Shown: piece after piece, positions 2,754-34,446 of the stretch | Numbering within the stretch: position 1 is the first letter of the stretch | Layout: each line of letters begins with the position of its first letter | Translations under genes and position numbers: made by a program | Notes under the pieces: model-generated | The model's database searches: none | Seen by the model: only the letters and a program-made list of their open reading frames with translations | Told to the model about the DNA's origin: nothing | Assembly (NCBI GenBank): GCA_963785335.1 | Contig: CAWAUW010000002.1 | Coordinates: 6,820 to 70,819 of the forward strand | DNA from: an uncultured Chlamydiales bacterium | Lineage (GTDB): Bacteria; Chlamydiota; Chlamydiia; Chlamydiales; FEN-1388 | Length of the DNA: 64,000 nucleotides | Reading direction: 5' to 3'

Positions 2754-4508
2754 TCAAAGCGAGGCGCGCATGAGGAGACCTGCAAGGGTATAACGATTAT
2801 GCACATTGCCATTACGTATTACCTTCAGCAGCGCTTCGATGCCCTTTTCGTCTTGTCTTTGAGCAAGTGCTTCAAAAGACTCAATTAATAGTGCGCAAGA
2901 CTCTTCAAGACTAAGTTGATAACGCAACGCTTGCACATCCTCGTCTTGCCTCATTTTCCAGGGTAGCACAGGCCGGGCTCTAAATACTTCTTTATCTTCG
3001 TGCTTTTCTACGATTCTTAAAATCGTTTCGGCATAAGGACCTGGCTGTTGCAGGCGATAAAGTCCCAAACAGCACCAAGCACGAATAAGGGGAGCGCCGA
3101 GTCGCTGCTCTTGGCTTTTAAGAAGCCCAATAGCCTTTTCAGAGCGCAAATTTTCAAGAAGCCGCACTGTGAGTGGGACTAAATCATATTGATTATTTAA
3201 AAAAATTGCTTCGGCAAGATCTATAAAATCATCTTCGGCAAGCTCTAGGGCGGCTATGAGCAGCTGTTCTCGAAGGCGCAGAGATATTTCAAAAAACTGA
3301 GGCTGTTTTTCTAACACTTGTAGAGAACTTGCCGTTACTTTCCAGCATGTAAGTGACCCGCCATGTGATGTAATAGGCTGAAATGTGTAATCGGCATGCG
3401 AGTCAATTAATATATCAGCAATACCATGCATACAGCGGCTATCTCTTCGTTGCAGTAAGGAAATAGCTGCATTTGTGCGCACATGTACATCGGGATGCTC
3501 TAAAAGCTCAACTAAAACAAGATCATCTCCATCTAAACTACCAAGTGCATTTATTGCAAAGCAATCACCCATCTTAGCAGCTTCTACGATGCAGCTTTTG
3601 GCAGTTAGCGACCCTAAAGCATGTAAAGCTTTAAGGGCAGCAAGTCTAACAGACGCGTTATGTGACAAGGCAAGTTTTTGCAAAAGCTCACGTGAGGTTT
3701 CATCACCAAAACACCCCAGTGCAAAAGCACAGGCCTCTTGCTGAACTGTGGAAGGCTCCTTAGCGAGAATACGGATGTCTTCGATATATTCATCTCGTCC
3801 AAAGCTTGCCATAGCAAGTATTGCCTCACGTCTTACTGCTTCATTTTGATCATAGGCTTGGCGTTTTAGCTCAAGTAGTGAGCTATGAGAGCCTTCCATC
3901 GCAAAAAGCCTGCAAAAAAGCTCGTGCATTTCAGGCTCTAGCTTTGACATAAGAGAGACAAGCTGCCCATAGGCATCACGGGAGCGCTTTTGTGCAAGCC
4001 AATATGCAGCTTCAAGGCGCACAATTAAGTAATCTGATCTCATAGCACGCTCTAATATTTCAGCGGCAACTTCTGTATCAAAAGAAGCTAGCACTGATAC
4101 AGCAACCAGCTGCAGCTGGGGCTCACCGTAACGAAGAGCGTTTTCAGCAATCACAAGCGATCGATCATCTTGGGAAATTCCTACACCATACAAACACGTT
4201 AAAAGATCTTGTGGATCACGACTTTTAGATCCTTGCTCAAGCAGGGCAAGGCCAAGTTTTTCTAGAGTGCCTTCATGAAATACATAAGCATCTTGGCTTT
4301 TTAAAGCTAAAAGAGCATCGATTGCCTCTTGGATTTTTCCTGATTGAATCATGTACAAAAGATGTGAAACTTTATTTTGACTAAAAGATGCCTCGTTTGT
4401 CTTTACAGTAGCTGGCAGTTCATGCTCTTTTTGGATCTGTCCTTCATCTACTGTATGATTAACACAAGAAGCGGCCATTAAAACAGAAAGCAGCATGATT
4501 TTTTTCAT
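2754..4508 (-). CDS. HEAT/PBS-lyase-like repeat lipoprotein
   Basis: Signal peptide and lipobox LMAASC. Recurrent HEAT-like units: VRLEAAYWLAQ, VRREAILAMASFG, VRLAALKALHALG, VRTNAAISLLQ. Confidence 0.7.
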   Translation of the reverse strand: MKKIMLLSVLMAASCVNHTVDEGQIQKEHELPATVKTNEASFSQNKVSHLLYMIQSGKIQEAIDALLALKSQDAYVFHEGTLEKLGLALLEQGSKSRDPQDLLTCLYGVGISQDDRSLVIAENALRYGEPQLQLVAVSVLASFDTEVAAEILERAMRSDYLIVRLEAAYWLAQKRSRDAYGQLVSLMSKLEPEMHELFCRLFAMEGSHSSLLELKRQAYDQNEAVRREAILAMASFGRDEYIEDIRILAKEPSTVQQEACAFALGCFGDETSRELLQKLALSHNASVRLAALKALHALGSLTAKSCIVEAAKMGDCFAINALGSLDGDDLVLVELLEHPDVHVRTNAAISLLQRRDSRCMHGIADILIDSHADYTFQPITSHGGSLTCWKVTASSLQVLEKQPQFFEISLRLREQLLIAALELAEDDFIDLAEAIFLNNQYDLVPLTVRLLENLRSEKAIGLLKSQEQRLGAPLIRAWCCLGLYRLQQPGPYAETILRIVEKHEDKEVFRARPVLPWKMRQDEDVQALRYQLSLEESCALLIESFEALAQRQDEKGIEALLKVIRNGNVHNRYTLAGLLMRASL

Positions 4509-4510
4509 AG

Positions 4511-5104
4511 CTACCCTAATTCTTTAATATAGTCCCAGAGATCTATTCCAACCTCTTTAAGGACTAATCGCAAAGCATTTATAGGCAGTCCCATAACATT
4601 GTAGTAGCATCCTTCAATTCGCCTCACAAGTATAGAGCCGCTTTTTTGTATGGCGTAGCTGCCTGCTTTATCATACAAAGCATGTACTCGCATGTAACGA
4701 TGAAGCTCATCGGGGGTCAGTGTATTACATAATACTTTAGTTTCTTCTTCTTCGCAGTAAAACTTCCCATCTTTATAGCATGCTAAAGCCGTAATTACTG
4801 AATGCCACCTTCCACACAGGCGACTGAGCATCTCTCTTGATTCATTTTCGTTTAAAGGCTTTCCAAGAGATAAACCATCTATAGCAACTACAGTATCGGC
4901 TGTTAGAATAATGTCATTGGGAAAGTCTTGTGCCAACGATTTTGCTTTTGCCAGTGCTAGATCGCGCGCAAGGCTTGCTGCATCGCCTTTATAGGCAATA
5001 CTATCTTCATCAAAATTTGATGCCACCTGGCGAAAAGGCAACGAAAAAAAATTCATGATTTCAACACGGCGCGGTGAGTGGGACCCTAAAATAATTTCTT
5101 TCAT
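4511..5104 (-). CDS. maf: Maf-family nucleoside triphosphate pyrophosphatase
   Basis: MKEIILGSHSPRR...TADTVV...KAGSYAIQ motifs. The start at 5104 overlaps the ubiE stop; the ORF-track start at 5167 lies inside ubiE. Confidence 0.9.
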   Translation of the reverse strand: MKEIILGSHSPRRVEIMNFFSLPFRQVASNFDEDSIAYKGDAASLARDLALAKAKSLAQDFPNDIILTADTVVAIDGLSLGKPLNENESREMLSRLCGRWHSVITALACYKDGKFYCEEEETKVLCNTLTPDELHRYMRVHALYDKAGSYAIQKSGSILVRRIEGCYYNVMGLPINALRLVLKEVGIDLWDYIKELG

Positions 5105-5802
5105 ATTTTTTTCGCATAAAATAATGTGGCGATGCCAAATGTTTGAGGGACAACTGTAATTTGGCAAAAGCCAGCATTCTCAAGTTCTTTTACAATCTGT
5201 TCAGGAGCAACAAATGTCTCAATGCTTGCGCAAAGATATTTATAGGCATCTTCATTCGAAGTAATAAAGCGTCCAACAAGCGGTACCATAGTTCGCAAGT
5301 ACATTCTGTGCAGCATATTAAAAGTGCGCCCCTGCGGACGCGTAAGCTCAACTATAGCGAGAGTAGCATTATTTTTTAGTACGCGATATAGCTCGCTAAA
5401 GGCCGCGGCTCTATTTTGAATATTACGTATGCCATAAGCACAAGTAGCCGCATCAAAGCTGCTATTTTCAAATGCAAGTGCCTCTGCATTTGCTTGTAAA
5501 AAGTTTACGTTACCACATGCAAGACGTTTTTTTGCAATTTGCAGCATCTCTTCGGAAAAATCTACTAAGTAATATTCGGCAGCTTTATTCTTTTGCATCA
5601 TACGCTTTGCAATTTCTCCGGTACCGCAGCAAAGATCAAGAATGGTTTTGGGATTATTTTGCAAAGCCTGAGTCACCAGAGCTCTATTCCATAATCTATG
5701 CAGATTACCAGAGAGAACAGCATTGCCCAAATCATATCGTGGGGCTATGCTGTCAAAAAGAGATTGAATAGTTGAAGGATTGGATTTATCATATTTAGTC
5801 AT
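5101..5802 (-). CDS. ubiE: Demethylmenaquinone/ubiquinone C-methyltransferase UbiE/MenG
   Basis: Typical UbiE N-terminus (FDSIAPRYDLGN) and SAM motif I ILDLCCGTGE. Confidence 0.9.
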   Translation of the reverse strand: MTKYDKSNPSTIQSLFDSIAPRYDLGNAVLSGNLHRLWNRALVTQALQNNPKTILDLCCGTGEIAKRMMQKNKAAEYYLVDFSEEMLQIAKKRLACGNVNFLQANAEALAFENSSFDAATCAYGIRNIQNRAAAFSELYRVLKNNATLAIVELTRPQGRTFNMLHRMYLRTMVPLVGRFITSNEDAYKYLCASIETFVAPEQIVKELENAGFCQITVVPQTFGIATLFYAKKI

Positions 5803-6643: not shown

Positions 6644-7780
6644 TCAAACAACCACTAATCGGCAGTCATCTTGGCAATAATCATAACCGGAATGAATTTT
6701 TTTTGGTATACGTCCCGCACTAGAAATTACATTTTCTAGCACTGCATTAGTCATTTGAACTTTAATTCCACCAGCCATAACAATAATTTTTTCTTCAAGA
6801 GACGTTGCGGCAATGTCATTTGCACCCCAACGCAAAATTTCTTTAGCCTCATCTATTCCTACATAATTCCATAACACTTTGATGTTACGCACGTTATCAA
6901 GCATTAAGCGACTTATGGCATATATACGTCGGATATCTTTGGGTTTTAGCCTATCTTTACGTTTGCCAAGGGCATTATTTTCTACATGAAATTTTAAGGG
7001 CACAAAAGTCTGAAAGCCGCCGGTTTCATCTTGCAAATTACGTATACTTTCTAGGTGAGTGACAATATGCTCAGGCTCTTCGATGTGGCCAAAAAGCATT
7101 GTCACATTAGAGCGGAGGCCCTTTTGGTGGGCAATTTTATGAATTTGCAAATACTCATCTGATGTAATTTTTCCGGGCGCAATTTTTTTGCGTATTTCTT
7201 CGACCAAAATTTCCGCGCCACCTCCCGGAAGCGATCCAAGGCCCCATGACATCATGCGATCAAATACCTCTTCCACCGTAATACCATGAAGACGTGCCAG
7301 AAAATCATACTCTACCGGCGTCAAAGCTTTAATGTGCAAGTTGCTATCAATAGACTTAATGCGCGTAAATACATCTTGGTAATAATCGAGGTTGCAGTCT
7401 CTCCAAAGACCACCTACAATGTGGATTTCAGTAAGATCTTTGTCTAAATTTGCACGAACACTCTCTTCAATTTGTTCAGGCGTTGTAAACCATGCGTTTT
7501 TCCAGCCTGGTTTTGCATAAAATGAACAAAGCGGACAGTTAAGCTCGCATAAGTTTGTGGGGTGTACATAGAGCGTTGAAGCATAATAGACTACATCACC
7601 TAGTTTTTCATTTCGTCTGTAATCTGCAAGTATTCGTACGGCCTCAAGATGTTCGGTATTCAGCAAAATAAGTGCATCATCAGCAGAAAGTCTTTTTGCA
7701 TCTAAAACCTTTTGAGCTATATCTAAAAGGGCATCTGGCATTTTCCTAAGAAGTATATCGCGGGGGGAAGCTATAGTCAT
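6644..7780 (-). CDS. Radical SAM menaquinone biosynthesis enzyme, MqnC/MqnE family
   Basis: CxxxCxxC cluster motif CELNCPLCSF, about 378 aa, in a futalosine gene context. Confidence 0.85.
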   Translation of the reverse strand: MTIASPRDILLRKMPDALLDIAQKVLDAKRLSADDALILLNTEHLEAVRILADYRRNEKLGDVVYYASTLYVHPTNLCELNCPLCSFYAKPGWKNAWFTTPEQIEESVRANLDKDLTEIHIVGGLWRDCNLDYYQDVFTRIKSIDSNLHIKALTPVEYDFLARLHGITVEEVFDRMMSWGLGSLPGGGAEILVEEIRKKIAPGKITSDEYLQIHKIAHQKGLRSNVTMLFGHIEEPEHIVTHLESIRNLQDETGGFQTFVPLKFHVENNALGKRKDRLKPKDIRRIYAISRLMLDNVRNIKVLWNYVGIDEAKEILRWGANDIAATSLEEKIIVMAGGIKVQMTNAVLENVISSAGRIPKKIHSGYDYCQDDCRLVVV

Positions 7781-7838: not shown

Positions 7839-8924
7839 ATGACAATATGCTTCATAAATGCTCAAATTTTTCAGCCTGAAGGGTTTATTAGCGGTGAGCT
7901 CTACGTAAAAAATGGCAAAATCATTGCTCCTGAGGCGGCCGATAAGGTGTATGATTGCCAAAACATGTTCCTTTGTCCCGGTCTTATTGACCTTCAGGTA
8001 AATGGCATTGCCGGACATGATTTTACAACGAGTCTTGATTCATTAAGTGATAGCTGCTCGCTGCTTTCTGGCTACGGTGTAACTAGCTTTTTGGCGACTA
8101 TCGTAAGTCAGCCCCTACGGCGCTACAAAGATATTATAAAAAATTTTAAGCCGCAAGAAAACTGCATAGGCCTGCATTTAGAAGGCCCTCATATCAACCC
8201 CAAACGAAGGGGAGCGCATCCATTTAATGCTATTGTCGAAGAGTGCGCGGTAGATTTTTGGCAAGAAATAGCCGATCCTTCCAAAATCAAAATGGTAACA
8301 CTAGCACCCGAGTGCCGCGGCAGTGCAGAGCTTATTGAACTTCTTTCATCCCGAGGCATTCTGGTTGCCTGTGGTCATTCTCAGGCCACATTTGAAGAAA
8401 TAAACAAAGCAAGAATTCACGGCCTAAGCTTTGCTACACATCTATTTAATGCTATGGAACCATTTCACCAAAGATCTCCAGGCATCATAGGGTATGTTTT
8501 AGGTCACAAAAAGCTTTCCTACTCTCTGATTGTAGATGGCGTACATCTTCATCCTGACACAGTAGCCATGGCCTATAATGCCCATCCTGAGGGCCTTGTG
8601 CTTGTAAGTGATTCAAGTGCAAGAACGCTTGCCGGCCACACTTTAAGCTCGCAAGAAGGCAAAAAAACCCTTTCCGGCACCGATACGATTGCAGGTTCAA
8701 GCTGCACATTACTTGATGCTGTAAACCTGCTTCACCAGCAAACCACCTGCAGTTTCCATCAAGCAATAGCCTGTGCTACCGCAAAACCCGCCGCGCTTTT
8801 AGGCCTTACAACAAAGGGGCGGCTTTTAGAAGGATTTGATGCAGATATCATAGTCCTTGATGAAACAGGATCTTGCTGTAGAACTTTCCTGAGTGGCGTC
8901 CAAACCTACCCAACTAAAAAATAA
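7839..8924 (+). CDS. nagA: N-acetylglucosamine-6-phosphate deacetylase
   Basis: Amidohydrolase motifs GLIDLQVNG, HLEGPHINPKRRGAH, CGHSQAT, THLFNAM. The ATG at 7839 avoids overlap with the divergent gene. Confidence 0.85.
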   Translation: MTICFINAQIFQPEGFISGELYVKNGKIIAPEAADKVYDCQNMFLCPGLIDLQVNGIAGHDFTTSLDSLSDSCSLLSGYGVTSFLATIVSQPLRRYKDIIKNFKPQENCIGLHLEGPHINPKRRGAHPFNAIVEECAVDFWQEIADPSKIKMVTLAPECRGSAELIELLSSRGILVACGHSQATFEEINKARIHGLSFATHLFNAMEPFHQRSPGIIGYVLGHKKLSYSLIVDGVHLHPDTVAMAYNAHPEGLVLVSDSSARTLAGHTLSSQEGKKTLSGTDTIAGSSCTLLDAVNLLHQQTTCSFHQAIACATAKPAALLGLTTKGRLLEGFDADIIVLDETGSCCRTFLSGVQTYPTKK

Positions 8925-8951
8925 ATGACATCGATTAAGAAGATCCATGTT

Positions 8952-9297
8952 GAGATTTTTTTTTACCGCAGAGAAAACAGCCGAGATCGCAGAGAAACGC
9001 AGAGAGAAAGAGAATACAAAATACTGAATAATACAGCTGTCCGACGCCCAATGGACATTATTCGCGAGAATAATGCCCAAAAGGTCAGGCCGCTAAGCGC
9101 GGCAGAAAGCTTGGCCACGTGGGTTTTACTGAGAGGCGAAGCTTTCTGCCGCGCTTAGCGGCGATGCCCCTCTGGGCATTATTTCTCAAAATAATGTCCA
9201 TTCAGCATCCTAAGCATCCGATTTCGCGAAGCGTCTCTGCATTTCTCTCTCTCTCTCTGCGTCCTCGGCTGTTTTCTCTGCGGTAAAAAAAAATCTC
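8952..9297. repeat. 346-bp nested palindromic element, family C copy 1
   Basis: Outer arms are GAGATTTTTTTTTACCGCAGAGAAAACAGCCGAG and its complement. Inner arms are AATGGACATTATTCGCGAGAATAATGCCC and GCCGCTAAGCGCGGCAGAAAGCTT. The core is shared with the element at 53591-54220. It also has (CT)n/(GA)n tracts. Confidence 0.9.
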
Positions 9298-9397
9298 ACC
9301 ATGTATCGGCATTAGCCATAGCCTTTACTTCCTGGCTTTCTATCTCATTTTGTAGTATTCTATTGCTTTATCTTGTTGCTCTATCCATCGGAGAGAT

Positions 9398-30159: not shown

Positions 30160-31971
30160 TTAAGGCAGGTTAAATCCTAAGATGTTTGCTGCCTTTATTC
30201 CAGCCATCATTGCTTGCCATCTAGTATTTCCTGTTTCAGGAAATGGATAGATGCTGTTATCTGCTACCATGAGGTGTTTGGTGCCAAAGACATGTAAATC
30301 ATGGCTGCTAATCACTCCATTGGCAAGGGAACTTCCCATTTGGCATGTGCCACTATAATGGTTAGTCATAGTTAGCTGTGAATAGTTAAGAACCGCTCCT
30401 GCATCAAAGGCAAGTTGTGCATCTCCTGCTGCAAAATGGCTTGGAGGTGGATAAAGCATGGTTACCCCGAGTTCTGTAGCAATTTCATTCATAATTTTAA
30501 AAGCTGCTACTGAAGCCGAAAGATCAGACGCTGGATCACTTAAATCTCCATCAGAATATAGGTTAAATCTTATATCCGGAAGAGTAAATGGACTATCATC
30601 CACAATGAAGGCAGTACCTGAGCTTCTAGGCCTTAAATTCCACACAGGACCTGCGAAACCAGGTACACTTTCATCAATTGAGGCTGCTGAAATAAGGCTT
30701 GGAGGAAGGACGGCTAAAGTAGGGAATTCAACAAGCTCAAATCTGCGGACATCATCTCCTGTTCCTGCTGGATCAAAAAAGTTTCTTCCGTCAGTAAAGC
30801 CTAAAATTTCTTGAAAAAATTGATCGCTTGGATTTTCTGGCTGTGTCATGCCATAGAGAATACCATAGTGTTCTTTTAGACCTGTTCCGACTAAAGGATT
30901 GTTAACAAGCACGGGAACATTGACCTTTGGATCTTGGAGTACTGTCCGAGGTCCAATTCCAGATCTTTGCAAAATTGCAGCAGAATGTGGGCACCCAGCA
31001 CATAAGATGACTTCTTTTTTCGCATAGACAATTTGGCCGACATTGCTATTATCGATAAAGTATTCCACACCAATTGCTTTATTTCCTTTGAAAATAACGC
31101 GATGTGCCACGGCATTTGATAAAACGTTCAGTTTTCTTCCATTTTTGCCTTTTCCATCATTTCCCAAAATGGATGTGGGCAAGAAATCTCGTCCATACGT
31201 ACGCTGATTCTGATCAGCCGTTGCAAAATTTTGTGGAGTTGAAATAGCCGTATTTCCATTTGGAACGTTGTAATCGTCAAGAATAGGAGCTCCTGTAACA
31301 TCTGAAAAGACATGCGGAACAAACTCGCTGTCAGACAAATTAGGAAGCACTTGTGAAACTTGTAAAGGTCCTGTGAATCCTCTGTAAGAAGGTTGCTCTG
31401 TGTTGCCAACAAATTTCTCAATAAACTTCATATATGGCAAAAGTGCATTATAACTCCATTGGCTATCCCCAACAGTAGCTGCTAATTCATCCCATCGATC
31501 TGTTGATCCTCTGACATCTACCATGAAATCATGGGCACTTGTGCCAAACCACATTCTTCCAGATGAATACTGTTCAACAGGAAAAAATCCAAAAAGGCCA
31601 ATGTTAGGATTGTTTGGATTATCTTCAGGGCAATTTTTAGTAAGTGCATATTTTGAACTATAGGCCAATTCATCGATTGTTCCAAATATTTCATTTGGGC
31701 CTGCGTTGATGATAGGATCATCCGATCTGTTTACACCTGCTTCTAAGACCAAAACGCTGTTCTTATATTTTCCATTTACAGGATCTGACAAATAGCGGGC
31801 AAGGACGGATCCTGAGCTACCTAAACCTACTATGACATAGTCTGCAACTACTTTTTTATTCTTGTCATTAGAAGAGTTACTTGAACTTGAACTATGATGA
31901 CGACCTGCTTGTAAGGATGTTACTCCCACAAGAGTCATGCACAAGACTCCAAAAATTTTTCGCGCAATCAT
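30160..31971 (-). CDS. Secreted GMC-family FAD-dependent oxidoreductase
   Basis: An AAGGAG SD lies 7 nt before the ATG at 31971. Signal peptide MIARKIFGVLCMTLVGVTSLQA, Ser-rich linker, FAD motif DYVIVGLGSSGS, and a GMC-type C-terminus with the H...N active-site region (NHYSGTCQMG). Confidence 0.8.
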   Translation of the reverse strand: MIARKIFGVLCMTLVGVTSLQAGRHHSSSSSNSSNDKNKKVVADYVIVGLGSSGSVLARYLSDPVNGKYKNSVLVLEAGVNRSDDPIINAGPNEIFGTIDELAYSSKYALTKNCPEDNPNNPNIGLFGFFPVEQYSSGRMWFGTSAHDFMVDVRGSTDRWDELAATVGDSQWSYNALLPYMKFIEKFVGNTEQPSYRGFTGPLQVSQVLPNLSDSEFVPHVFSDVTGAPILDDYNVPNGNTAISTPQNFATADQNQRTYGRDFLPTSILGNDGKGKNGRKLNVLSNAVAHRVIFKGNKAIGVEYFIDNSNVGQIVYAKKEVILCAGCPHSAAILQRSGIGPRTVLQDPKVNVPVLVNNPLVGTGLKEHYGILYGMTQPENPSDQFFQEILGFTDGRNFFDPAGTGDDVRRFELVEFPTLAVLPPSLISAASIDESVPGFAGPVWNLRPRSSGTAFIVDDSPFTLPDIRFNLYSDGDLSDPASDLSASVAAFKIMNEIATELGVTMLYPPPSHFAAGDAQLAFDAGAVLNYSQLTMTNHYSGTCQMGSSLANGVISSHDLHVFGTKHLMVADNSIYPFPETGNTRWQAMMAGIKAANILGFNLP

Positions 31972-32086
31972 ACAATTTCTCCTTGTTTTCATGAATTCTT
32001 TGCACAATACAAAGGTCATTTTTTTCTATTTTTCTGTTGCCACTTCTGACTTATAAATGAGAGTAAAAAATTTATACAAGAAAAAT

Positions 32087-34336
32087 TTATGAAGAAAATT
32101 TATTTTCAACAGGAATTGGAAGTTCAAGGAGGGCTAAATGTTTTTTTGTCCAAGGGATAAGCTTGGTATAGAGGTATTTAGTAAACTCGACTGAATTTTT
32201 TATGCTGCGCTTTACAGCATCAATATATTCTTGGTCATTATAAACGATTACTGAAGGCTGTTTTCCAAGATTAAGGATTGTGTTCATGAAAATTCTTGCT
32301 AACCTTCCACTGCCCTCATCAAATGCAAAAATCCGAATAATTTGCGTGTGTGTCCAGCCTGCAAGGTCCACATAATCGATTGTGTCTTGACTCAAGCGAC
32401 TTTGTAGATCTTGGGCAAAAGTGGTCATTAACGGTTCTATCTCTTTTGGGCCAGGGGGAATGTAGCCGACTGTGTCCCAAATGGCTTTTTCTTGTTCAGT
32501 AAGGTTGCCAAGATTGTTTACATCTCTTTGGACGAGCGTGACTAGGTGTATGAATTTTATGAAGTCTGCACGGGAAAGATTGTCCCTTGCTTTTTCAATC
32601 ATTTTCTCAGGATTACCTGTACCATCAAGAATCATCCAGCCTGTGCGATATTTTCCTAAAGAGGGTGGATCCTCATGCGTTACACGTTGCATGAGTATAT
32701 AGTGAACCATTTTTATTAGCTGCAGCGTCTGTTCAGCATTCTGTTTTAGGATCTCTGGGTTAGATAAAATTGCCTGTTCAATGAAATGTAGGGCATTTTG
32801 GTAGTTGAGATACTTGTGTTCAGATAGATCAAAATGCATTTTTTTCTTTTGCCCATTGATGACAAAAGTAAAGGGAAGGCCTTTTTCAAAAGAAGCTTCT
32901 TCAGATGCATGAAGCGCAAGAACATGGCCCATCGATTTTTTTTGCCCAGAAAGCTCTTGTAGGCATGTTTCAGTGGATGCAGCAGTAGCTTGAATGTCGC
33001 ATCCATCGCGGCCAAGGTTTACAAGCTGTATGCCGGGGTTCATGTACCTGGCTTCGTTTATTATTCTGCGACGTATAGGATCATCAAGATGAGGCAGATT
33101 CTTTTTTGTCCAGGCAAGCTGATTGCGCAAATAGTCTGTAAAAACTTTTCGATCTTTTGTGCCTTCCTGAACTTTTTGTAAATAGACAGTTTTGTTGTTG
33201 AAGACAACAGGAGATTCTTCTGCATAAACAAGAATGGTGTTTAAAATAAGCCTTGAAAGCTTTCCTACACTTATTTGAAAGGGAGAAATTTGGGTAAGCT
33301 CGGCGTGAGCAAAGCTTGCGTGGTCAATAAAATCTCCACCCATTTGCATGCGAGCCTTAAGAGCTTCAGCAAAGCTCATCATTGCCGAGTCAATATTGTG
33401 AGGCATTGTGGCGACAAAAAATACCTTGTTAAGTAAAGCAATATCTTCTTTTGTAAATGAAGATGCATTTTTTTGTGAAAGCTCGCCATACATCTTGACG
33501 AACTTTATATATTCATCTTTTAATGGGAGAGTTTGTTGTACATGGGCGCCAAGTAATTTTCCATGTACTTTATGGGTAAGGATTTTAGTGCTATTTCGGT
33601 ACTTTCCTGGAGAATTACGTTTTTCATAAAAAAGATCATCTGTAAGAATGCGGTGCAGTTTTTGGATTGTCTGCAGCGTGTTGTTGGCTCCTTGTTGAAA
33701 CAACTGCATGTCGTTTACTAACGTAGCCTCAGCATATTTTAGAGCCTTTTCGTAATTTTCGAATTTCCTGGCAGGGATAAGAAATGTAAAAGGAATGGCC
33801 ATACCATCTTGTCGTATGCCAAGGCGTACCACACCTTCTTCATGAGTTGTATTAATGTCAGACTCAGTAAAACGCTCATTATGAGGAGATTTATGCAGGT
33901 AGTGTTCGTACAAAGAGCCGCTCGCAAATTCGCATCGTTCTCGTGAATCAACGCCGGATGCCATATCACAGGCGGTTGTGCCGAGTCTTGCTAGCTGCTT
34001 GCCGGGATTCATATAGCGAGCACTATTAACGAAATAACTTTGAGAAGCTACGTTTGGAACATGCGCCGGAGGAGCTGGAGCCTCGCATTGGCAATCAGCT
34101 GTAGTACTTGATGATATGCAACTTGCCCCTGCAGCTAATGCTGGGGCTATGGGAAGAAGCATCAAGCTTAGACCAATGGCTAAGCCAAAGACAAGTCCTA
34201 CCTTTGCCACTTCTACAGCAGTAGAGGCAAATTTTTTGAATGATCTGCCGAGCCAGCTACTTTCGGTTTGGGAATCTTCTTTTGTTTGGGATAACAGGGT
34301 TGCTTGTTTTTTTGTAATAGAGTAAGTAAAAGTCAT
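32087..34336 (-). CDS. Membrane-anchored protein with two tandem Fic-like domains, both lacking the catalytic His
   Basis: TM segment VGLVFGLAIGLSLMLLPIAPAL. It has two ~320-aa internal repeats, each starting (N)xARYMNPGxQL. Fic-motif positions read ISPFQISVGK (33260-33289) and IFAFDEGSGRLAR (32303-32332). A TTG at 34351 is an alternative start. Confidence 0.7.
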   Translation of the reverse strand: MTFTYSITKKQATLLSQTKEDSQTESSWLGRSFKKFASTAVEVAKVGLVFGLAIGLSLMLLPIAPALAAGASCISSSTTADCQCEAPAPPAHVPNVASQSYFVNSARYMNPGKQLARLGTTACDMASGVDSRERCEFASGSLYEHYLHKSPHNERFTESDINTTHEEGVVRLGIRQDGMAIPFTFLIPARKFENYEKALKYAEATLVNDMQLFQQGANNTLQTIQKLHRILTDDLFYEKRNSPGKYRNSTKILTHKVHGKLLGAHVQQTLPLKDEYIKFVKMYGELSQKNASSFTKEDIALLNKVFFVATMPHNIDSAMMSFAEALKARMQMGGDFIDHASFAHAELTQISPFQISVGKLSRLILNTILVYAEESPVVFNNKTVYLQKVQEGTKDRKVFTDYLRNQLAWTKKNLPHLDDPIRRRIINEARYMNPGIQLVNLGRDGCDIQATAASTETCLQELSGQKKSMGHVLALHASEEASFEKGLPFTFVINGQKKKMHFDLSEHKYLNYQNALHFIEQAILSNPEILKQNAEQTLQLIKMVHYILMQRVTHEDPPSLGKYRTGWMILDGTGNPEKMIEKARDNLSRADFIKFIHLVTLVQRDVNNLGNLTEQEKAIWDTVGYIPPGPKEIEPLMTTFAQDLQSRLSQDTIDYVDLAGWTHTQIIRIFAFDEGSGRLARIFMNTILNLGKQPSVIVYNDQEYIDAVKRSIKNSVEFTKYLYTKLIPWTKKHLALLELPIPVENKFSS

Positions 34337-34446
34337 CAATTTAGTACGCAAAATAAAAAGATAATTTAGATAATAGCATGATATTTGTCAATATAACGAG
34401 GATTTTTAGATTGTTCCTTTTATGAAACAGCTTCCCTACATCTTGT

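Follow-up and report, generated by a model that had tools for sequence, protein, structure and literature searches.

A 64,000-nucleotide (nt) stretch of genomic DNA from an uncultured Chlamydiales bacterium (positions 6,820 to 70,819 of contig CAWAUW010000002.1, GenBank assembly GCA_963785335.1; hereafter the window) was found to carry a gene for a protein of 749 amino acids (aa) with two tandem Fic folds, both His-less. It is one of a family that is confined to a single genus, is maintained by selection and shares a conserved putative export leader. The coding sequence (32087..34336, minus strand; 749 aa plus stop), recognised in the open reading frame (ORF) list and its translation, comprises a leader, a linker and repeats 1 and 2. 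His-less or degenerate Fic and Doc clades are already known, and the new part is this family; no description of a tandem His-less chlamydial Fic family was found in the literature searched. The proposal made here, held with about even confidence, is that the protein is a non-catalytic ('pseudo') Fic-fold binding protein located outside the bacterial cytoplasm in environmental Chlamydiales.

Residues ~101-425 and ~426-738 align with one another at 29% identity over 333 columns (135 bits, E=1e-41, BLASTP), which is far beyond chance. In each repeat a YMNPG beta-hairpin is followed by a C-x11-C pair, a helix, a second hairpin and the helical Fic core, and the corresponding strings NSARYMNPGKQLARLG and NEARYMNPGIQLVNLG lie at aa 104-119 and aa 427-442. 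Repeat 1 (aa 101-425; 33062..34036, minus strand), which has the YMNPG hairpin as a cap and Cys123/Cys135, was recognised by BLASTP, Pfam and Foldseek. Repeat 2 (aa 426-738; 32123..33061, minus strand), with its own YMNPG cap and Cys446/Cys458, was recognised by Pfam, a PDB search and AlphaFold.

The Pfam Fic profile (PF02661) matched the whole protein in 2 stretches (E=3e-17) and, when the repeats were scored alone, gave 46.1 bits for repeat 2 and 23.8 bits for repeat 1 against a cut-off of 24. When the PDB was searched by sequence, human FICD and other Fic proteins came up (E=2e-6), and the HMMER alignment of repeat 2 with FICD was residue-for-residue over PF..(D/E)G.GR..R, the preceding AxxH helix and an 'IPP.P' segment. 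The whole protein was modelled by AlphaFold2 with a mean predicted local distance difference test score (pLDDT) of 78.8 and a predicted template modelling score (pTM) of 0.69; disorder was confined to the N-terminal end, the linker (69-97) and the final 11 residues, and pLDDT was mostly >90 over residues 590-730 of repeat 2. When the whole model was compared with the PDB using Foldseek, the top matches were all Fic or FICD proteins with probability 1.00. Repeat 1 modelled alone had a pLDDT of 76, and its top 50 Foldseek matches in the PDB were all Fic proteins. As the input alignments for AlphaFold held canonical Fic sequences, the models are not independent of sequence homology and show compatibility with the fold. 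Taken together, profile, sequence and model comparisons establish both halves as Fic folds, as had been proposed in an initial annotation made from the sequence alone; the strings quoted there were all found where it had placed them, and the searches that might have failed to return a Fic fold returned one for each half.

In Fic enzymes the signature His is the general base, the Asp/Glu binds the metal, the G-N-G segment forms the anion hole and two Arg bind the beta and gamma phosphates. Repeat 1 has a degenerate signature at aa 350-362 (I-S351-P-F-Q-I-S-V-G-K-L-S-R; 33251..33289, minus strand), located by repeat and family alignments, and repeat 2 has a His-less signature at aa 669-681 (I-F670-A-F-D-E-G-S-G-R-L-A-R; 32294..32332, minus strand), located by the HMMER alignment to FICD and by family alignments. 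The position of the catalytic His is thus occupied by Ser351 in repeat 1 (ISPFQISVGKLSR) and by Phe670 in repeat 2 (IFAFDEGSGRLAR). Further changes in repeat 1 are Asp/Glu to Ile, Gly to Ser, Asn to Val and the first Arg to Lys, with the last Arg kept. In repeat 2 the only other change is Asn to Ser, and Glu674, Gly675, Gly677, Arg678 and Arg681 are kept. HMMER placed 'irifafdegsgrlar' over FICD 'vyihpfidgngrtsr' with high posterior probability, setting Phe670 on the catalytic His, and Ser351 shares that column in an ungapped repeat-to-repeat alignment and in the family hidden Markov model (HMM) alignments. The nearest His residues, H344 and H663, align with a separate conserved His of the preceding helix (the canonical 'AxxH'). 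Realignment to put a His in register was considered and dropped, no such His being present in the repeat-to-repeat, FICD or family alignments, and the earlier claim that the catalytic His is replaced in both copies is upheld. The altered signatures are also seen clade-wide, with (G/A)NGRLAR in most members for repeat 2 and a consensus of (S/Q)PFxxGVGR(L/I)AR for the repeat 1 clade.

Upstream of each signature, at the position of the flap, a GKYR element was found: P-G-K-Y-R-N in repeat 1 (aa 243-248; 33593..33610, minus strand), identified by alignment and lying ~105 aa before the signature, and L-G-K-Y-R-T in repeat 2 (aa 560-565; 32642..32659, minus strand), identified in the family alignment. 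Across 48 family members R564 is invariant and G561 nearly so. The AlphaFold model has just 1-2 strand residues at the flap (251-252 in repeat 1; 570 in repeat 2), with lower confidence. No (S/T)xxxE(G/N) inhibitory helix was aligned; opposite the SNxIEGN of generic Fic proteins the family has either a gap or cap sequence unrelated to it, in a region where the alignment is uncertain. A separate motif, G-G-D-(Y/F)-I-D-H-A, was observed in repeat 1 where the helix preceding the degenerate signature begins (aa 333-349; window 33290-33340, minus strand). Its G333, G334, D335, H339 and A340 are invariant in 7 tandem proteins, repeat 2 has I-D-Y-V-D-L-A at the same place, and by helix register the motif is far from the active-site loop.

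The closest relative, P0002, shares 43% identity with the protein and has the same Ser and Phe, in ISAFQTGVGRLAR (repeat 1) and IFPFETGNGRLAR (repeat 2). It was the one close relative found by a word-indexed protein search, and almost nothing came back when repeat 2 by itself or a 48-sequence profile was the query. An exhaustive HMMER scan of 1.84 billion representatives yielded 371 relatives at E<1e-3, 22 of them at E<1e-30, and the matches from a scan of metagenome loci with a 7-sequence alignment were for the most part generic Fic proteins. In a sample of 200 genomes from across the order, two-domain copies were restricted to the genus of the window's own genome, where 5/5 sampled congeneric genomes carry them as 2-7 matching stretches each, some adjacent. 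The His column was filled by His in 111 of 166 aligned domain rows, mostly from single-domain relatives, and these 111 conform to HPFxDGNGRxxR, a motif that the majority of single-domain relatives keep. The corresponding count for 16 two-domain representatives was 2 of 32 domains (P0012 repeat 1 and P0013 repeat 2); the residue at this position in two-domain proteins is S, Q or T in repeat 1 and W, F, Y, M, S, K or L in repeat 2.

Two observations on the spread of the family were made in passing. P0155, in the cluster of P0151, is a 595-aa tandem member deposited as 'Fic family protein [Verrucomicrobia bacterium]' from a metagenome-assembled genome (MAG); either the family extends beyond Chlamydiales within the Planctomycetes-Verrucomicrobia-Chlamydiae (PVC) group or the bin is mislabelled. 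Family members also occur in local arrays in two congeners, G193 (locus L022, G193:C105:3605-7140), with two adjacent tandem-Fic genes, and G048 (locus L029, G048:C2:78917-83722), with three Fic-family genes within ~6 kb, one of which keeps the His. These arrays suggest expansion by local duplication.

The source genome of the window (G000; 2.35 Mb, 7 contigs, 81% complete by marker genes) contains no other member of the family. Its other Fic genes are distant, matching the family profile at E 1e-8 to 1e-10 compared with 1e-94 and 1e-112 for the repeats themselves. The canonical HPFxDGNGR pattern occurs at three loci in this genome, where L005/L009 (G000:C1:451968-452281) represent one broken gene, a probable pseudogene of canonical Fic type (IIHPFKDGNGRIGR) whose reading frame contains TAA and TGA stops. 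These genes bear on the idea that the two modules, both dead, mimic a Fic dimer and thereby regulate or sequester active Fic paralogues, in the manner of pseudokinases. Fic enzymes such as FICD are reported to be regulated by dimerisation, and related genomes hold His-bearing single-domain paralogues, sometimes beside the tandem gene as on contig 2 of G048. Such a regulatory pseudo-dimer is nonetheless improbable, given that the present genome has only the distant Fic genes to be regulated and that no conserved gene partner was found.

The origin of the two repeats was examined with a maximum-likelihood tree of 43 domains (LG+C20+F+G4) from which the His column had been removed. The repeat 1 domains formed one clade (100/96) and the repeat 2 domains another (98/96), with largely congruent internal branching, and the repeat 1 clade was sister (99/93) to three single-domain proteins, 2/3 of which keep the His. 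At least 6 changes between His and non-His are required on this tree. An approximately unbiased (AU) test rejected repeats 1 and 2 as one clade (log-likelihood difference 45.7, p=0.0095), the group tested having been defined once a quick first tree had been seen. A recent internal duplication was accordingly rejected, repeat 1 being nearer to free-standing single-domain genes than to repeat 2. The 'internal duplication' of the initial annotation is therefore retained as two homologous repeats, but not as an origin of both halves within one clade. Because of the AU test and the placement of the sister group of repeat 1, the tandem protein looks, as far as its sequence relationships go, like a join of two already diverged paralogues in each of which the His was lost separately.

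Selection on the family was estimated from L126 and L127, alleles of the closest relative that differ at 98 nt. The Nei-Gojobori ratio of nonsynonymous to synonymous substitution rates (dN/dS) was 0.155 overall, and 0.18, 0.12 and 0.17 in repeat 1, repeat 2 and the leader, respectively. The query and its closest relative are equally diverged in the two repeats (47% identity in repeat 1, 46% in repeat 2), which together with the dN/dS values argues against decay. A decaying relic of a tandem Fic enzyme, drifting towards a pseudogene, is very unlikely for the same reason and for others. The motif of repeat 1 is heavily eroded, that repeat alone lies just below the Pfam cut-off, P0003 (locus L038) has lost ~70 residues of repeat 1 with the flap included, and stop codons are present in some family copies of relatives. 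The ORF, however, is intact over 749 aa, its substitutions recur in a protein of 43% identity, dN/dS is 0.12-0.18 in both repeats of the closest relative, the AlphaFold model is confident, and the family was present in every genome of the genus examined (5 sampled and this one). The aligned sequences thus identify the His-less state as a family trait and not decay. The initial annotation had raised the possibility of a conserved family of His-less paralogues, and this is borne out by the alignment of relatives, by the Ser and Phe shared with P0002 and by purifying selection. A His-less state that is conserved and selected fits the choice offered there, between a pseudo-enzyme and non-canonical chemistry.

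The leader (aa 1-72; 34121..34336, minus strand) was defined from the family-wide layout, AlphaFold and Kyte-Doolittle hydropathy, and consists of a polar start (aa 1-27, rich in Ser, Thr, Lys and Gln), a conserved motif and a hydrophobic segment. The motif, at aa 28-46 (W-L-G-R-S-F-K-K-F-A-S-T-A-V-E-V-A-K-V; 34199-34255, minus strand), was found by family alignment, and its family form, (C/S)-(S/W)-x-G-R-x-F-x-K-I-A...V-A-K-V, is present in nearly all members, both tandem and single-domain. It is unlike the Tat motif or any known extended signal-peptide region. A single hydrophobic stretch of 26 aa (aa 46-71) ends in P-A-L-A-A-G-A; the 19-residue Kyte-Doolittle maximum is 2.36 at residue 46, and AlphaFold predicts one long helix at 28-59. 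In several relatives the hydrophobic segment is 13-16 aa long, and AxA often comes after it, immediately ahead of the first domain. With its shrunken segment and AxA in relatives, the leader looks like a signal peptide with a long n-region. Positive charges ahead of the single hydrophobic segment also favour Sec-type export. Tat export was considered and rejected, the leader motif having a single Arg (GRxFxK) and no TatC having been found in this 81% complete genome; the absence of TatC rules out Tat export only, and not Sec. A lipoprotein signal was likewise rejected, G-A-S-C73 being loosely lipobox-like and not conserved in relatives.

Between the leader and repeat 1 lies a Cys/Pro-rich linker (aa 73-100, with C73, C83 and C85; 34037..34120, minus strand) that has pLDDT <50 at 69-97 and is not conserved in relatives. 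The Cys pairs within the repeats are conserved. Cys123...Cys135 of repeat 1 (C-x11-C; 33932..33979, minus strand) is invariant in the tandem clade, and Cys446...Cys458 of repeat 2 (32963..33010, minus strand) is at least 90% conserved in 48 members including those that keep the His, both as seen in the family alignment. Single-domain relatives have extra CxxxxC loops after the leader. No homologue of DsbA, DsbB, VKOR or Thioredoxin_4 was found in this genome at its 81% completeness, and the Cys pairs are accordingly regarded as no more than candidate disulfides. The missing oxidase and TatC matches may reflect incompleteness of the assembly or divergent oxidases. Several genes neighbouring the Fic-like gene encode Cys-containing exported proteins although no Dsb, VKOR or TatC homologue was detected.

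The layout of the N-terminus also raises the possibility that the protein is secreted by a type III system and faces the host in the manner of inclusion membrane (Inc) proteins, in which case secretion would be directed by the polar N-terminus, and the modules would be tethered to the inclusion or host membrane by the hydrophobic segment. This alternative concerns location and is compatible with either a binder or an enzyme. The 25-45 polar residues that precede the hydrophobic segment are as in Inc proteins and unlike ordinary Sec signals, and the missing synteny and the missing Dsb-type oxidase for periplasmic disulfides are in keeping with it. It is regarded as possible and less than probable, in view of the one hydrophobic segment (26 aa here, 13-16 in several relatives) with AxA-like residues, which fits a signal peptide, and of the Cys pairs in every repeat and CxxxxC loops in single-domain relatives, which fit an oxidising compartment better than the host cytosol. 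An Inc-type bilobed hydrophobic domain consists of two adjacent transmembrane segments (~40-60 aa), and one stretch only was found. The N-terminal transmembrane segment and Cys-rich stretch that had led the initial annotation to suggest surface or inclusion-membrane display are present at aa 46-71 and at C73, C83 and C85, but the Cys-rich linker is not conserved and the segment is not bilobed.

Under the proposal of a non-catalytic binding protein, the conserved leader would take the protein out of the cytoplasm, serving as a long signal peptide or else as a signal anchor, and the rest would fold as two Fic modules, each with a YMNPG hairpin cap and a conserved Cys pair. With Ser (module 1) or Phe (module 2) in place of the general-base His, neither module is expected, from the established chemistry of Fic proteins, to perform ordinary Fic AMP or phosphoryl transfer. 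Module 2 may still hold a nucleotide, another ligand bearing a diphosphate or phosphate, or a modified target residue without turnover, since it keeps the Glu that binds the metal, the anion hole formed by glycines and the two arginines. Module 1 is without most of this cradle and keeps the fold and the GKYR flap element, and it would act as a docking or structural partner. The protein presumably arose by fusion of two paralogues that had diverged within a leader-bearing chlamydial Fic family that is otherwise catalytically canonical, after which purifying selection would have kept it as a binder or scaffold. Precedents exist for binding by such domains. Among the fold matches of repeat 1 is PDB 4itr, IbpAFic2-H3717A with adenylylated Cdc42, a precedent, by analogy, for a His-to-Ala Fic domain that still binds its adenylylated target. 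BepC of Bartonella binds GEF-H1 and is not known to have any enzymatic activity, and Bep8 of Bartonella combines the degenerate motif PFxxGNE with a canonical fold (PMC8401265).

Several points weigh against a non-catalytic exported binder. The sole ground for ligand binding by repeat 2 is conservation of its motif, no recognised oxidase was found that would support the conserved Cys pairs as periplasmic disulfides, and a polar region of 25-45 aa before the hydrophobic segment is unusual for Sec signals. Residual activity was reported for the IbpA His-to-Ala mutant, and natural His-to-Gln Doc clades were argued not to be dead (PMC4454073), while AvrB, a Fido fold with a divergent motif, is a real enzyme, a rhamnosyltransferase (PMC10866546).

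The reports just cited also favour the view that the protein is still an enzyme of non-canonical chemistry, using another base, substrate-assisted catalysis or another donor such as a nucleotide-sugar, as AvrB does. This view draws on the strong purifying selection and on Glu674, Gly675, Gly677, Arg678 and Arg681 of repeat 2, which are conserved across the clade. In addition, aromatic residues predominate at the His position of the main repeat 2 clade (F, F, Y, W, W, W and F as against M, S and K), a preference that suggests a selected role for a position that is not neutral. It was judged rather unlikely all the same. No conserved substitute base was found, the invariant His residues being H228, H339 and H344 in repeat 1 and H663 in repeat 2, which by helix register in the model appear to sit on helices at a distance from the active-site loop. 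The His position itself is variable in the family (S, Q, T, F, W, Y, M, K, L), unlike a new fixed catalytic residue, repeat 1 is also without the metal-binding acid and the Asn, and AvrB is absent from the top 50 fold matches.

A more specific form of the binding-protein proposal, which we regard as speculative and doubtful, is that the genus-restricted, exported Fic-fold clade has turned into catalytically silent 'readers' by losing the catalytic His independently in its two fused paralogous domains, and that the intact cradle of repeat 2 would recognise a diphosphate-bearing ligand at the bacterial envelope or where the protein meets the host. The ligand might be a nucleotide, a protein that is AMPylated or phosphorylated, or the diphosphate of an isoprenoid or lipid carrier. 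A crystal structure of FICD with farnesyl pyrophosphate (PDB 9yz5) is among both the PDB sequence matches and the fold matches. If true, the 'reader' clade would be the first natural family of Fic-fold receptors.

The gene itself is a single intact ORF on the minus strand, with an ATG at 34336 and a stop at 32087-32089; an alternative in-frame TTG start is present at 34351, 15 nt upstream of the ATG. Its G+C content of 0.40 equals that of the rest of the window. A consensus scan found a sigma-70-like promoter, TTGACA-17-TAAATT (34363..34391, minus strand), matching 10/12 consensus positions just upstream of the start codon, although sigma-70-like sites are no more numerous in the region than in shuffled sequences and the site is weak evidence. 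The same type of scan, also weak evidence, found no terminator-like site between the gene and the GMC oxidoreductase gene that lies downstream on the same strand. Upstream is a gene for a GH3 NagZ-like enzyme.

The genes that flank the relatives are different, namely a kinase and a DarT-Macro protein in L038 and a SprT-like protein in L127, and the best orthologue of the GMC gene in G048 has neither neighbour beside it. An operon or partner gene identified by synteny was thus rejected, there being no conserved context in the L038, L127 or G048 comparisons. A role in anti-phage defence was also rejected, as PADLOC gave generic Fic-model matches only (SoFic, PDC-S04), with no system context. The adjoining GMC oxidoreductase (window 30160-32019, minus strand) bears a signal peptide and belongs to a multi-copy family, matched 4 times in this genome and 2-7 times per genome in 8 others of the genus; the further copies here are at G000 C2:287459-289159, C3:126726-128450 and C1:1166575-1168242. 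In L038, from the Chlamydiales MAG JTS-AC372, the gene beside the tandem orthologue encodes a 466-aa fusion of DarT and Macro in one chain (7961-9361, plus strand), which joins the fold of a single-stranded DNA ADP-ribosyltransferase toxin to that of its antidote. The second neighbour there encodes a eukaryote-like Ser/Thr/Tyr protein kinase (3904-5310, plus strand).

A Fic domain is almost invariably regarded as an enzyme, with its His as the defining feature. The family described here is a natural, selection-maintained one in which both Fic folds of one exported-looking protein are His-less while the closest single-domain relatives are canonical. It offers an evolutionary series, from canonical to eroded to fused and His-less, in which one can ask what a Fic fold does without AMP transfer, and it adds a candidate family for host or envelope interaction to the poorly known effector repertoire of environmental chlamydiae. 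No new principle is involved, as degenerate motifs in Bartonella Beps, His-to-Gln Doc clades and AvrB already depart from His-dependent AMPylation.

Among known systems, FICD has an N-terminal membrane anchor and a Fic domain that lies outside the cytosol. The 749-aa protein resembles AMP-transferases of the FICD/HYPE type (PDB 4u04, 6i7g and 9yz5) in its helical Fic core and in an active-site loop between two helices. It differs from them in being without the catalytic His and without a TPR domain, in having Ser or Val in place of the Asn, in having a YMNPG hairpin and Cys pair as the cap with no inhibitory helix aligned, and in having two Fic folds per chain. Two tandem Fic domains in one exported protein are also known from IbpA of Histophilus somni and PfhB2 of Pasteurella multocida, and structures of IbpA Fic2 are among the fold matches of repeat 1. 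The Fic domains of IbpA and PfhB2, however, keep the His and are active AMP-transferases, whereas the 749-aa protein has neither His. Those are very large two-partner-secretion proteins with haemagglutinin-type repeats, none of which was detected by Pfam in the 749-aa protein, and the repeats here, unlike theirs, come from two diverged paralogue lineages.

Also comparable are the Beps of Bartonella, likewise a lineage-specific, expanded Fic family, found in a bacterium that lives inside cells; there too the fold and loop remain canonical as the signature erodes (PMC8401265). These proteins are built as FIC-OB-BID with a positively charged C-terminal signal, reach their destination through a type IV system and have their origin in a FicTA toxin-antitoxin module. 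BepC keeps its His (H146) (PMC8401265). In contrast, the 749-aa protein has Fic only by Pfam, with no OB or BID domain, a leader at its N-terminus, a second Fic fold at its C-terminus and no signature His in either. A clade-wide replacement of the His that is retained by selection is shared with Doc clade D2, noted in silico, whose signature is Qx[F/Y]x[D/E][G/V]NKR (Khater and Mohanty 2015, PMC4454073). That clade is single-domain, Doc-type and fixed for Gln; the present family is Fic-type and tandem, with a variable residue and a predicted export leader. AvrB/AvrC of Pseudomonas syringae exemplify a divergent-motif Fido fold that binds a nucleotide-diphosphate donor for a different chemistry (PMC10866546). 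AvrB is a single-domain, type III-secreted plant effector and has no detectable similarity to the 749-aa protein, in sequence or within the top 50 fold matches, beyond the general Fido fold. Lastly, chlamydial Inc proteins are like it in that the first ~70 residues comprise a polar N-terminus and then a hydrophobic segment, and in the status of an accessory gene. In the 749-aa protein, unlike Inc proteins, the hydrophobic domain is single and short, and it is followed by globular domains with conserved Cys pairs.

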